From: Octopus vulgaris
Taxonomy: Eukaryota
Assembly (NCBI GenBank): GCA_951406725.2
Contig: OX597814.1
Location: forward strand, 43,152,001 to 43,216,000
DNA: 64,000 nucleotides
Reading direction: 5' to 3'
Positions within the stretch are counted from its first letter, which is position 1; each line of letters starts with the position of its first letter. This document shows positions 29,495 to 56,926 of the stretch, in pieces. Under the pieces are notes generated by a model that was given only the letters and a program-made list of their open reading frames with translations, was not told where the DNA came from and did not search any database. A program made the translations under genes and the position numbers.

Positions 29495-31400
29495 AAGAAA
29501 GCGGAGGAGAAGGAGAAGAAGGAGAAGAAGAAGAAGGAGAAGAAGAAGAAGAAGATGAAGAAGAAGAAGGAGAAGAAGAAGAAGAAGAAGAAGAAGAAGA
29601 AGAAGAAGAAGAAGAAGAAGATGAAGAAGAAGAAGAAGGAGAAGAAGAAGAAGAAGAAGAAGAAGAAGAAGAAGAAGAAGAAGAAGAAGAAGAAGAGAAA
29701 AAAATGAAAAAGAAGGAGAAGAATGTGAGAGTGGTATGATAGTAGTAGGAATTTTAAATGGTCAAGCGCCTTGAAAGTGACTTGTGGATGGTAGTAGTGA
29801 TTTAATTCTTGAGATATCTCATTTGAATGTATTGTTTGATTGTATTGCTATCCTAAATAGCAGTAATAGTAAAGTAAGGAAGGAGGTAGCAGAGAAGGAG
29901 AAGAGGACGGAGAAGAAGAAAGTGAAAAGAAAATAATAAGAGAAAGCGGGATGGTATCATAGTATTAGGATGTTAAATATTCAAGTCACCTAAAAGTGGC
30001 TCGTTGTGGTTTATAGCAGTGATTGGGACTGATTTTAATGAATTCTTGGGTATCGCTTTTGAATGTATCATTTGAATATTTGCGTGTATGTTGTTCTAAC
30101 GTTGTGGTGGCTATGTCATTTGTTGCAGATGCAATAAAGAGAGTATCTTTACTAATTCGTGGGCTAGAGGCTGTATCGTCCCTAAATTGATAGAGGGGAA
30201 ACATTCTGAAGCTTGGATTTTTGTTATTCGCACAAATGTCGATGTGTTCGCTGAATGTTATTTTTCTGTTATTTTTACATTTTGACCTGGGATCTGTGCA
30301 GAGCCATCTTTCGACAGACTTTTTTGTTTGGCTAATGTATTGCTAGTGCATATATCAGATTCTCCGAAGCACATGTGAAGCTGTTTTCCATTGTGAAACG
30401 TTATCCCTGTTTGAAGAACTCTGATCCCTCAATTAAATTGACGCATATCCAGCAGTTGTCTCTTCCGCATGTTTTTAACTGACGTCTTCAGTATCGTTGT
30501 TGAGCATATTCGGCCTTTTGTTAGGGGACTTTTCATAGATTTGGACTGTCTCTTACTTTTTATGATGGTGTGTCTTTGGAGGATTAAGTTTATTTTGTGG
30601 GTCCCTTTTAGCAGAGGAATGCTATGAAGGATGGTGCCGAAGGCTTTATTGTGAAGGGAATTTTGAGTGAAGATATATGGTAGGGATATTGAGTTGTAAA
30701 TACTTCTTTAATTTGGAATGTCTGAGTTCGTGCAGCACGTTAAGTTGTAGGGCATGTTGAAAGCATATGTCAATTAGTGATGGCGGGTAGTTCCTGATGA
30801 TGAGTGTATCCGTTTGTTCATGTAGTCGTGTGTCCCTGGTGCTTGCATCAGAAATTATAGTACACATTCTTTTTGCTCGGCTAAAGGTCGTATTCATTCT
30901 GGTGTGTCTCGGGTGGAATGAGTTGAACGTAGATATTGTTTGGAGTGCGGGGACTGGAAGTATATATCTGTTTCTATTACATTGTTCCTAGAATCACTGC
31001 TATAATCCACAAGTCACGTTTAGGTCCATTAAGCATTTAACATGCTACTACTATTATACCATCCCGCATTTTCTTATTATTTTCTCTTCTTCTCTTTCTC
31101 CCTCTTCTTCGTCTGTTTCTCCTTCTCCACCACCTCCTTCCTTACTTCACTACTACTGCTGTGTAGAATAACACCTACGCAACTATTGTAAACAATACAT
31201 TCAACTGAGATATCTCAAGAATGCAATCACTGCTACCATCCACAACAAGTCACTTTCTCAAGCACTTGGCCATTCAACATCCTACAACTATCATAGCACT
31301 CTCGCATTCTTCTCTTTCTTCTTCTTCTTCTTCTTCTTCTTCTTCTTCTTCTTCTTCTTCTTCTTCTTCTTCTTCTTCTTCTTCTTTTTCTTCTTCTTCA
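29495..31400. repeat. Long inverted repeats (~320 bp plus (GAA)n/(TTC)n) bracketing a PLE fragment
   Basis: 29710-30025 is the reverse complement of 30991-31315 (e.g. ttcttgagatatctca..tgaatgtattgttt / aaacaatacattca..tgagatatctcaagaa). Confidence 0.8.
30100..30985 (-). mobile_element. Penelope-like thumb/linker/GIY-YIG remnant
   Basis: HPRHTRMNTTFSRAKRMCTIIS...RNYPPSLID (PLE thumb); FPLYQF...PRISKDTLFI (GIY-YIG C-terminal helix). Confidence 0.8.
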
Positions 31401-36476: not shown

Positions 36477-36522
<46 letters not shown>

Positions 36523-36568
36523 ACATGTAAACAAACTAGCTGTTTTTGACTATTTGCATTTATATATG

Positions 36569-36612
<44 letters not shown>

Positions 36613-36884
36613 CATATATAAATATATATATATATTTATATATGTATGTATGTATTTATGTGTATATAAATTGTATTTATGTGAATATAAATATGTATTT
36701 GTGTATAGAAATTTATTTATGTGTATATAAATGCGTTTCTTACCGAAATGCAGTTCGAAAAAGCCCGCCATTTACATAAATATATTACAAGTGAACATTT
36801 CCATGTGCTACGATGGAGGCGACGGTTGTCTGTTTGGTTCCGCCGGGTATGTTGGTTTTGTTTATTCTTAACACGTTTTGAATC

Positions 36885-36950
36885 AGTTTCACTGATGAAC
36901 AAAAGACGTAGATAATACGTTAATTGCGAAATTACAGGTGATCTGGAACT
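36885..36950 (+). ncRNA. Type-I hammerhead-like motif (family G, copy 1)
   Basis: AGTTTCA-CTGATGA-ACAA..GACGTA-GATAA-TACGTT..TTGC-GAAA-TTACAGGTGA-TC-TGGAACT; 7-bp stem I. Confidence 0.75.
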
Positions 36951-37368
36951 AAATTCCGTTGTTAAATGTCGTGCTTCGAGAGCAGCATTCGGTACGATTC
37001 GTTTATTTTTTGTAGTAATGACTTTGAAAGTCCCTCCTAGCGTGTGGCATTTATGTGTAATAATGCCCTCTATATAATATAAATAAATTTTTTCATGTGA
37101 AAAAAGTTTCAGATGTTTTCTCTTATGAGGTTTTTCACGCTAACTACCAGATAATTTCTTGTTAAGATTTCTTATTAAGATTTTATCCTTAATTGTTAAA
37201 CTTGTTCCGAGGAAACAAGTTTCCAACCGAAATGCAGTTCGAAAAAGCCCGCCATTTACATAAATATATTACGAGTGAACATTTCCATGTGCTACGATGG
37301 AGGCGACTGTTGTCTGTTTGGTTCCGCCGGGTATGTTGGTTTTGTTTATTCTTAATACGTTTTAAATC

Positions 37369-37434
37369 AGTTTCACTGATGAACAAAAGACGTAGATAAT
37401 ACGTTAATTGCGAAATCACAGGTGATCTGGAACT
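37369..37434 (+). ncRNA. Type-I hammerhead-like motif (family G, copy 2)
   Basis: As copy 1, with stem III TCAC-AG-GTGA and an AUC site. Confidence 0.78.
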
Positions 37435-37560
37435 AAATTCCGTTTATAAATGTCTTGTTTCGAGAGCTGCATTCGGTACGATTCGTTTATTTTTGGTAGT
37501 AATGACTTTGAAAGTCCCTCCTAGCGTGTGGCATATATGTGTAATAATGCCCTCTATATA

Positions 37561-37622
<62 letters not shown>

Positions 37623-37778
37623 CATAAGGGACGAAAGCCATCTGAATATGGCTAGGGACAGGGCAGGGTGGTGGGGGTGTTACTGTTGCATTTAGCCCCA
37701 GGCGAACATCGACGTCGCCAGATAGGCCCGACACCATCACGGTGTCCTTTAACCTGCAAAGGGAGATAATTCCCCGAT

Positions 37779-37852
37779 GAAGCGGAAACCACACACGGAC
37801 CATGGTTTCAAGGTGTATTGCCGATCGTCAACGTGTGGTAGGCCTCCGCTTC
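37779..37852 (-). ncRNA. Type-I hammerhead-like motif (family H, copy 1)
   Basis: GAAGCGGAGGCC-TAC-CACACG-TTGACGA-TCGG-CAATACA-CCTT-GAAA-CCATGG-TC-CGTGTG-T-GGTTTCCGCTTC. Confidence 0.7.
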
Positions 37853-38198
37853 CTCGACGAAATCTCACTCTGCAGGATATTCATATATAGATTTTCAAGC
37901 AAAATACATTTGCTGACTTCGAAAATCTGTTCGACAGCAATAATAATTCTCTAAAAGAGATATAGACAGTAACTGCTCGATAACATAAGGGACTAAAGCC
38001 ATCTGAATATGGCTAGGGACAGGGCAGGGTGGTGGGGTGTTACTGTTGTATTTAGCCCCAGGCGAACATCGACGTCGCCAGATAGGCCCGACACCATTAG
38101 AGAATTATTATTGCTGTCGAACAGACTTTCGAAATCTGCAAATGTATTTTGCTTGAAAATCTATATATGAATATCCTGCAGAGTGAGATTTCGTCGAG

Positions 38199-38272
38199 GA
38201 AGCGGAGGCCTACCACACGTTGACGATAGGCAATACACCTTGAAACCTTGGTCCGTGTGTGGTTTCCGCTTC
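38199..38272 (+). ncRNA. Type-I hammerhead-like motif (family H, copy 2)
   Basis: Same fold; stem II AGG/CCT, stem III CCTTGG, GUC site, 18-bp extended stem I with an internal loop. Confidence 0.7.
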
Positions 38273-38474
38273 ATCGGGGAATTATCTCCCTTTGCAGGTT
38301 AAAGGACACCGTGATGGTGTCGGGCCTATCTGGCGACGTCGATGTTCGCCTGGGGCTAAATCCAACAGTAACACCCCCACCACCCTGCCCTGTCCCTAGC
38401 CATATTCAGATGGCTTTAGTCCCTTATGTTATCGAGCAGTTACTGTCTATATCTCTTTTAGAAAATTATTATTG

Positions 38475-38617
<143 letters not shown>

Positions 38618-38821
38618 GAAGCATGACTGTCAACACTACTACATGAACCCGAAGATTGCAGAATTCAATGCATGAAAGTACTAGTTCAATCAGAATGAAT
38701 ATTTAACATTCTACTATTTCATTTTATTTTATTCAATTATAATATATTATCTTATAATATATCATTATAAGATTGTAAATAAAACGTGAAAATCAGACAA
38801 GGTTGGAATTCTTTTTATTAA

Positions 38822-54662: not shown

Positions 54663-55185
54663 TGTTAAGATAAGTTAACTTCAGTTAATTTTTAGGGGCT
54701 CAAAAAGCAAAAAGCAAGGACATGTTTGGGGACATGGAGTTATGTAGAGGGAGAGTGTTCATGCAAAGAGTTCGGGCCATTTCTGGTCGGCATCTTCTCT
54801 ATCTCGTCCGGCAGCTTATTCCACGGATCCGCAACCCGGAGGAAGAAGGCCCCTCTCTTTCGATTGAGATGAAATCGTCGCAGATAGAGCTTTTCGGAGT
54901 GACCCTGCAGCCGACGCTCTGGAGCAGGAATGAAGAACAGCTCTTTCGAAAGGTTACACTTTCCGCTTATGATGTGAGCGAGAATGAGATCACCACGGCG
55001 TCGTCGTTTTTCTAGAGAATAATGGTCGAGCTTCTTCAGCCTTTCTTCATAAGACGAATGCTTGAGACCAAGAACCATGCGGGTAGCCAGCTTCTGGACT
55101 CTTTCGAGATGATGTATGTCTTTGAGAAGATAAGGAGAAGGGGCTTGAATCCCGTACTCCAATATGGGTCTCACCAGCGTGATAT
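54663..55185 (-). mobile_element. CR1-like LINE 3' fragment nested in the PLE
   Basis: RPILEYG..SPYLLKDIHHLERVQKLATRMV.GLK..SYEERL..L...SLEKRRRRGDLI...GHS.KL...FF.RV...WNKLP. Confidence 0.9.
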
Positions 55186-55398
55186 GTTACTGTGGTTTGG
55201 GGGTATGGGTTGTGGGGATGTTGGGGTGAGCTGTGCGTTTGAAGCGAGAATATAGGGATGAGGATGTGAGTGGGGATGTGGGGTGGAAAAGAGGGTGTAG
55301 GGTAGGTATTATGGGAGTGGGAAGTTTGGTGTGGCGTGTGGAGGGTGGGTTTATCAATGGAGCGAGTAGGTGGGTAGGAGTGAAACAAAGAAGTAGAT

Positions 55399-55488: not shown

Positions 55489-56926
55489 AGGTGTTGACCC
55501 CATGTGGCACTAAGGAGCGAAGAAAGATTAATCCTGTTCACGGCGAATCCCGTAGGCCATATGGCCCCTGGGCAAAGACAATCCGAACACAGACATGTTT
55601 TGCAATGAATGGCCGATAGAGCTGAAATGGCGCGAGACCGGATTGTCATTGCTGAATCTAATGTCTTGGAGGTGCTACGAGAACCAGTCAGCCGAGCAGA
55701 GTCCCGTTTGATCAATGTACTGAAAAGGACAGACGGAGCAGGGGAAGCAATAAATGACGTGGCTAGAGGTACAGGCAAAGGAGTCAGTGATGTGATAGGG
55801 ACGATGATGGGTGCCAGTGTGGAAGACAGTGATGGAGAGGTAGAGGCATGTGCGGCAGCGTGGGCGGGAGCAAGGGAACGAGACACGTTGGGAGTTGAGA
55901 TTAAGGAAGAAACTGTGGACCAGGAAGTCACGTAGGTTGTGGGCTCGTTTGATGGAGGGAAGGAGTAGGTTGAGGAATGTGTGCTACTGGAGTCGCTGGA
56001 AGGCTCGGGGAATGTTGCGCAGGGTGGAGGGATGGTAGGTGAGGGGAAGCAGGAGACGAGCAACGGCGAGGCGGTACGGGGAGAGAGAGAGAGACAGCAG
56101 AGGAATGGTCCATGGAACGTGCTCTGGCAAGGGCTCTGTAGATAGTGATGAGGGGATATCCACGAAGGATGAAGTGGTGAACTATGAGTTGAGACTGAGT
56201 CCCGAAGTCATGGTTGTCACTACAGAGCCTGCGCAGACGCATGAATTGGGAGAAGGGGATGGAAAGATTCGTGTGGGTGGGGTGGGAGGAAGAGAATTTG
56301 AGGTTTGAGTGTGAGTCTGTGTGTTTGTAATGGATCATAGTAGCAAGAGCGGAGTCGTAATTGTTTACTGAAATCTCGAGAAAGGCAACGGAAGTGTTGG
56401 AAATAGTGCAGGAGTATTCGCGGGCAGAATGGAAGGATTGGATAAAAGAGCGGGAGTCTACATTTGTGTGTGAGTGTGTGTGTGTGTGTATGTGTGTGTG
56501 TGTGTGTGCGTGCGATTATTCATATGTAACTTTCTTGTCTACGTCAAAATCTATATTATGCTGCTGATCCGTGATTGTACTGCATTGGAACAGAATCAAC
56601 AAAATATTTTACACAGATTTAACTGTATGTATTTGTGCGGGAACAGTCTAATATTTTCGATGAAGCATAACACACACACACACGCACACACACACACACA
56701 CGCACACGCACACACACACACACACGCACACGCACACACAAAATGCTACACTAACACATGATCACACACACATGTCTGTGTTTGTGTATGAAGACCAAAC
56801 GCCAAACTGTCTAAATCTTGCATTAGATAGAAGAACGTACAAAATCGAGTTCAGAGATATTTACGAAATGTGTAGCCGTTAAGATCTATGTAAGTATTAC
56901 AATATAAGTTATAATATGTCTTTCAC

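Follow-up and report, generated by a model that had tools for sequence, protein, structure and literature searches.

The insertion at 36735..37569 (+) of the Octopus vulgaris window (the whole stretch of 64,000 nucleotides that was analysed) is one copy of a dispersed non-coding repeat family, with units of 450-495 nt and a type I hammerhead. It represents a new family of a known class, being a non-LTR retrozyme by every sequence criterion tested, and the traces of insertion by Penelope-like elements (PLEs) are unusually clean in its copies. That the family is non-autonomous and mobilised by PLEs is very probable. The best explanation, and in our judgement a fairly likely one, is that the RT and GIY-YIG nuclease of an autonomous PLE inserted a non-autonomous hammerhead repeat, probably from a circular RNA monomer.

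It had originally been proposed that the locus holds two near-identical copies 484 bp apart. The period of 484 stands, while the two whole copies do not: the insertion is 835 nt long, and only 354 nt are duplicated (36735-37088 against 37219-37572, gapless, 15 mismatches, 95.8% identity). With position 1 of the unit set at 36944, the insertion comprises positions 276-484, then 1-484, then 1 to about 142 to 145, followed by (TA)n (Table 1). It is a lone arm, and no target-site duplication is discernible around it. The 4% divergence between its two repeats is ordinary decay, and the locus is an ordinary copy, slightly decayed. The monomer has 34.7% GC and its longest ATG-started frame has 55 codons; that is, the unit is small, non-coding and below 45% GC, as retrozymes are in size and composition. 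Directly 5′ of the junction, at 36651-36732, there are four degenerate 20-nt repeats resembling pieces of the unit before site A, a resemblance that may be due to chance in TA-rich sequence.

Table 1. Features of the 484-nt-family insertion and its immediate flanks (window coordinates).
Feature	Position	Strand	Remarks
TA-rich low-complexity 5′ flank	36477..36732	.	
Whole insertion	36735..37569	+	1.73 units; 5′-truncated at unit position 276; 3′ end at site A
Partial unit	36735..36943	+	5′-truncated (positions 276-484); hammerhead 1 at its end
Type I hammerhead 1	36880..36956	+	Core CUGAUGA 36892-36898; A10.1 36899; C11.1 36927; GAAA; predicted cut after 36943
Predicted monomer	36944..37427	+	484 nt, between both predicted cut sites
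Site A	37080..37090	+	Around unit position 145; first of the two fixed 3′ ends in the family; putative reverse-transcription start
"Tail" from site A to site B	37089..37203	+	About 112-115 nt
Site B	37195..37203	+	Around unit position 255-260; second of the two fixed 3′ ends in the family
Type I hammerhead 2	37364..37440	+	Core 37376-37382; A10.1 37383; C11.1 37411; predicted cut after 37427
Terminal partial unit	37428..37569	+	Positions 1 to about 142; stops at site A
(TA)n target tract	37569..37620	.	At the 3′ end; common to the 361-nt family insertion

The hammerhead motifs are present as they had been quoted, with CUGAUGA at 36892 and 37376, GAAA at 36928 and 37412, and U-C before the predicted cut at 36943 and 37427, the latter two positions being C17. 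Numbering and geometry follow the usual description of the motif and PMC4209133. All 11 core positions are present in both window copies. Stem I has 6 bp (GUUUCA/UGGAAC) and, past an internal loop, a distal GAAU/AUUC stem; stem II has 3 bp, a 2x2 loop and 6 bp; stem III, AU(U/C)A-CAGG-UGAU, has 4 bp and is quasi-palindromic, with one U-G in hammerhead 1. The two consecutive motifs, 484 nt apart, have MFE values of -10.7 and -12.9 kcal/mol, in agreement with the definition of retrozymes in 10.64898/2026.07.22.740005 by at least two consecutive hammerhead-bearing units and a motif MFE below -5 kcal/mol. The Rfam covariance models gave no hammerhead match, neither at the gathering score nor at E<=10, probably on account of the long stem II.

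The two window copies do not have the hammerhead as their minimum-energy fold: it lies 2 kcal/mol higher when 67 nt are folded and 6-8 kcal/mol higher when 77 nt are, and the fold z-scores are -1.0 and -1.9. Folded as a circle, the 484-nt monomer does better than every one of 60 shuffled sequences (z -3.0), which speaks for a circular RNA. Stem III is far more stable as a two-molecule helix (-11.2 kcal/mol) than as a hairpin (+0.4 kcal/mol), which fits dimeric cleavage, a mode described for animal hammerheads (PMC4209133).

The pairing is conserved by covariation. In an alignment of 67 distinct copies, from which 10 truncated or gapped rows of 77 were excluded, the covariation is 0.210, compared to 0.136 for shuffled and <=0.113 for slid alignments, and 90.7% of the cells pair, the covarying cells deriving from few independent subfamily events. 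Two-sided changes recur across many loci (137 copies), both in stem I (UA 79/CG 25; CG 101/UA 6) and in stem II (CG 80/UA 27; UA 57/CG 52; AU 86/GC 14). N7 and H17, the positions free of constraint, are variable. The core is intact in 42 of the 51 copies that were found without a motif search, a borderline conservation (P 0.03-0.09). The ribozyme is probably functional in the family, and we hold this with good confidence. The release of the 484-nt monomer by two cuts is a prediction.

The first stem II pair had been described as a non-canonical A·C in both copies, and it indeed is (36899/36927 and 37383/37411). The position, A10.1-C11.1, is that of a pair called highly conserved in the available text of PMC4209133. 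Most sampled copies carry the usual G-C there: 35 of the 44 motifs in the position-picked sample (see below) have readable cores, 28 with G-C and 7 with A·C, and A at 10.1 is found in three stem II backgrounds. Genome matches to a window-type pattern (n=56) have 55 A, 1 T and 0 G at A10.1, and those to a sister-subfamily pattern (n=34) have 33 G and 1 A at this position. Since A is present in 55 of 56 window-type matches and across three stem II backgrounds, the A·C pair is not private decay. A literature search found no published activity of any A10.1·C11.1 hammerhead. We put the chances that the window A·C copy could cut at about even. Among Xenopus retrozymes, 9 predicted dimers were assayed in vitro and only 1 showed cleavage (10.64898/2026.07.22.740005).

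The family consists of several subfamilies 5-30% apart, with copies about 2-4% from the majority of their own subfamily. One subfamily (loci L259, L267 and L279) has the core CCGAUGA, in which C replaces U at core position 4; the PLE end at 38615-38821 of the window, described below, carries this change too.

The genome comprises 2.8 Gb in 227 contigs. A search with the 484-nt monomer gave 2724 first-look candidates, of which 40 were scored. A 19-nt pattern covering stem III and the cut site has 568 exact matches, compared to 0 for the reversed control, which means that the hammerhead match is not due to chance; being exact, the pattern overlooks mutated copies. Among the first 100 matches listed of the 568, there are 5 same-strand pairs 451-494 nt apart and 9 opposite-strand pairs, all of them head-to-head, and no trios or trimers of the hammerhead are found. 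A long master array may exist elsewhere in the genome, beyond these 100. Assembled contigs from putative RNA runs cover parts of the unit with no unique flank, and DNA may be present in these runs; one such contig spans 37427 (37316-37542), such contigs being blind to strand, ends and circles.

The manner of insertion was examined at 101 distinct loci, collected through similarity or through the motif; one segmental duplication accounts for two of them. Of their 156 outer 3′ ends, 79 fall at site A, 49 at site B and 28 elsewhere, and the 5′ ends are scattered. (TA)n lies within 20 nt of 113 of the 156 outer 3′ ends, compared to 415 of 5050 flank samples (8%). More than half of the loci (55 of 101) have a head-to-head inverted arm, and 10 have two junctions. 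The pairing of the ends at the 55 inverted loci is strict: 38 are A+B, where 19 would be expected if the ends were independent, and there are 0 A+A and 0 B+B; of the other 17, 14 have one end elsewhere and 3 have both. A second sample of 40 loci was picked by position from the 568 pattern matches (4 of them chosen as dimers), leaving 38 after two duplicates were dropped. Here, with ends at unit positions 141-150 scored as site A, 15 of the 17 inverted loci are A+B, and the remaining two are one compound and one short-armed locus. Partial tandems, an inverted truncated arm, a tail at one end and microsatellite targets are listed as PLE hallmarks in the available parts of 10.1101/2021.04.23.441226 and PMC3846280, and the tail is explained in that of PMC11167929 as the interval between two internal reverse-transcription starts. 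The family has all of these features, namely partial tandems, inverted 5′-truncated arms, a one-end tail and (TA)n targets. The rule of one arm per site limits models of how PLE head-to-head insertions form.

The original prediction left a choice between a retrozyme and a PLE terminal-repeat family. This is right, and it can be narrowed: since the element is dispersed, non-coding and in about 140 loci never the terminal repeat of a PLE, it is of the non-autonomous retrozyme type, with PLE-type insertions. It is improbable that the unit is instead the terminal repeat (pLTR) of an unsampled autonomous PLE, with the copies being its 5′-truncated ends. Such an origin would agree with the insertion hallmarks, which are all of PLE type, with the autonomous PLEs of this genome, which likewise end at (TA)n, 80-135 nt past hammerhead variants, and with the match of Xenopus retrozymes to pLTRs given in the accessible text of 10.64898/2026.07.22.740005. 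However, what lies upstream of the hammerhead in the family copies is the unit again, and never a PLE reading frame (0 of 101 loci, and 0 of a further 40); the few PLE protein matches near these loci belong to other insertions, set apart by a microsatellite or by their distance. Same-strand motif pairs 2.5-5 kb apart are absent among the first 100 matches listed of the 568, and the ribozyme has full helices (6-bp helix I with a distal stem, 4-bp helix III), unlike the minimal motifs of PLE pseudo-LTRs, in which helix I is short and helix III small or missing (PMC4209133). As for a local tandem duplication, or a satellite with a chance hammerhead match, the lack of an Rfam match and the weak folding z-scores would suit it, but the dispersed homologues that were sought as a check on a single-locus duplication number in the hundreds, on many contigs, with fixed 3′ ends and covariation. 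Their dispersal refutes a local duplication, to which we assign practically no probability.

What RNA served as the template is a separate matter. The predicted cut is crossed by 84 of the 101 main arms (74 once, 10 twice and 0 three times; the longest arm is 856 nt), the cut junction has no indel in 67 aligned copies, and no pile-up of 5′ ends was found at the cut site (1 of 30 loci; 1 real case among 9 pattern matches). Hence a cut linear monomer is not the template. The units of a tandem within one locus are about 4-5% apart, far closer than the subfamilies (up to about 30%), so tandems are rebuilt from one unit. Two tandem hammerheads can be read at 9 loci, and in all 9 the pair belongs to a single subfamily. 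An uncut linear transcript would give copies never longer than their parent, and would confine new subfamily changes to one unit. One subfamily per tandem, together with the fact that no long array is seen, calls for a step that rebuilds the tandem. A circle made by the hammerhead is the simplest such step, the rivals being template jumping and unseen master arrays, and we consider a circular RNA template the likelier case. Two direct tests of a single template discriminate poorly: the distance within a locus is smaller than that to the closest other locus in only 5 of 36 pairs in tandem and 8 of 53 inverted ones, and shared private variants number 4 in about 6760 tandem sites.

It is rather unlikely, in our assessment, that the PLE-driven, non-autonomous element was copied from uncut linear read-through RNA, with the tandems arising by template jumps or from rare master arrays, and with a hammerhead that is dispensable, or weak or dead in the A·C copies. 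The anole PLE mainly uses uncut RNA as its substrate in vitro, and mutating the hammerhead leaves its insertion normal (PMC11167929); Naiad PLEs make partial tandems without hammerheads (10.1101/2021.04.23.441226). The seamless junctions suit uncut RNA equally well, and A·C copies have been amplified in at least three stem II backgrounds. On the other hand, compensatory changes preserve the pairing of stems I and II across subfamilies, arrays of at least three units are absent from the 101 loci and from the first 100 matches listed of the 568, and template jumps should leave variable junctions inside the unit, while the period is exact within a subfamily.

For the circular template, the following sequence of events can be proposed. 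A locus with two hammerheads would be transcribed, and both hammerheads are predicted to cut, giving the 484-nt RNA, perhaps as dimers through the quasi-palindromic stem III. The RNA would then be ligated into a circle, by analogy with the retrozymes of mussel, coral and axolotl. Next, the PLE protein would nick both strands of a (TA)n tract, the target being the one observed at the insertions, and cDNA synthesis would begin at two internal positions of the RNA, site A for one strand and site B for its partner; this enzymology is suggested by the fixed ends and their strict pairing, both of which are observed. Synthesis would pass the joined cut site and stop at variable points, consistent with the observed arms of up to about 1.8 units. 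A more specific version, which we put forward tentatively and rate slightly below an even chance, is that a PLE enzyme dimer copies the hammerhead-made circle from two obligatory and differing internal starts, one per target strand and about 115 nt apart, and runs on across the ligated cut; the circle would replace master arrays, the recurrent A·C would be tolerated, and the 361-nt family would behave likewise, with a 44-nt tail.

Candidate enzymes are at hand, as the genome is rich in PLEs with RT and GIY-YIG: two families have many long frames and a third is found in locus L267. These three RT/GIY-YIG families are candidate helpers. A cognate autonomous PLE was found neither by blastn nor by a ribozyme covariance model (50-80 PLE loci, three families). 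Decayed fragments of PLE reading frames are present in the window itself, at 6708-7085 (+), 29986-30987 (-) and 55675-56515 (-), and searches with them lead to two PLE families that are abundant and whose frames measure about 780 and >1000 codons. Loci L245-L254 contain full-length Neptune-like PLEs with terminal repeats about 4.5 kb apart and a minimal hammerhead with a UUGAAGA core 125 nt before the (TA)n end; their many near-identical copies indicate recent activity. Further hammerhead-like motifs with a palindromic stem III were detected with the covariance model at L251:279-327 (-) and L236:585-632 (+). They probably belong to other families of similar kind, and the L236 one weakly resembles the 361-nt family.

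The original claim that the unit has no similarity to the 361-nt family downstream, with only (TA)n between them, is confirmed (best blastn E 0.88; spacer 37569-37620). The 361-nt family (37619-38476) is also dispersed, with 1453 candidates, and it is younger (97-99% identity). Its insertion is head-to-head, the left arm being minus and the right arm plus, and the family bears the same footprint as the 484-nt one: its 3′ ends are fixed at two points next to (TA)n, and the tail between them is 44 nt long. On the minus strand near 37790-37837 there is a hammerhead-like motif with a UUGACGA core and a palindromic stem III, to which Rfam gave no match; as the motif is in the minus-strand sense orientation, this ribozyme candidate is opposite in strand to the 484-nt unit. 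A compound system of the two units was considered and rejected, since they co-occur solely here among the loci of the 484-nt family and the 25 loci of the 361-nt family examined. Their adjacency reflects the common (TA)n target. Further on, 38615-38821 is what a 5′ truncation has left of an RT/GIY-YIG PLE, namely its 3′ end, flanked by (TA)n; over about 210 nt it is identical to the PLE end in L267. This piece contains a hammerhead variant of the minimal sort, whose core is CCGAAGA and whose stem III is palindromic. With the 484-nt, the 361-nt and the L267-type PLE ends side by side, three PLE-driven insertions are stacked in one (TA)n tract. Elsewhere in the window, 17850-18678 (+), 19600-19914 (+) and 54740-55186 (-) are fragments that we take to resemble LINE reverse transcriptase ends; Pfam gave no match for them. 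Finally, the part of the window at about 18.7-19.9 kb is repeated at 19.9-21.1 kb, next to a run of N, and may be an assembly duplicate.

PLEs have been proposed as candidate movers of animal retrozymes (PMC7229834), and their role has been argued from co-occurrence and pLTR homology, with the mechanism said still to be elucidated (10.64898/2026.07.22.740005). The available parts of these two sources leave open both the enzyme that moves animal retrozymes and the circle as template, and the 484-nt family shows the PLE footprint directly. It also names two exact start sites on the 484-nt RNA, and the genome holds intact candidate enzymes. With these three elements in hand, the question of mover and template becomes testable at the bench by the published in vitro PLE assay. 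A cephalopod retrozyme, or PLE-type ends on any retrozyme, was not found in the literature, subscription papers, supplements and repeat databases aside, where the family may be catalogued.

The metazoan non-LTR retrozymes known from the accessible text of PMC7229834 are those of coral, the mussel Mytilus (350-390 nt) and axolotl (330-350 nt). What the 484-nt family shares with them is a short tandem unit that is non-coding, low in GC and provided with one type I hammerhead with full helices, as well as the coexistence with autonomous PLEs. Its unit of 451-494 nt, on the other hand, is longer than the 170-400 nt given there, while it is within the 51-972 nt of the available part of 10.64898/2026.07.22.740005. 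Other differences are that no arrays past two hammerheads are seen, that stem II is elongated, that some subfamilies have A10.1·C11.1, and that cleavage and circles are here predicted. The PLE-type ends are not described for metazoan retrozymes in the accessible portions of these two sources. With plant LTR retrozymes, the family has in common a hammerhead-delimited monomer and the non-autonomous character, but the type III hammerhead, LTRs, PBS/PPT and 4-bp target duplications of the plant elements, as listed in 10.64898/2026.07.22.740005, are not seen in it.

The similarities to endonuclease-positive PLEs (Penelope/Poseidon, Neptune, Naiad) and their pseudo-LTRs lie in the 5′ truncation, the partial tandems, the head-to-head arm, the tail at one end, the AT-rich or (TA)n targets and the hammerhead upstream of the 3′ end. 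Unlike them, the 484-nt family has no reading frame, its hammerhead is full-helix and not minimal, and its tail is 112-115 nt compared to the 30-40 nt usual in PLEs; nor does the unit match, in sequence, any of the three PLE families that were examined in this genome. An experimental parallel is the anole Poseidon PAc, for which PMC11167929 describes, in vitro, two internal starts that define the tail, nicking and extension of both strands, and starts downstream of the cut, as in the 484-nt family. In contrast to PAc, for which the start sites of the two strands did not differ in vitro, the arms of the 484-nt family always differ (38 of 38 classifiable loci), and its putative starts are AU-rich and target-like.
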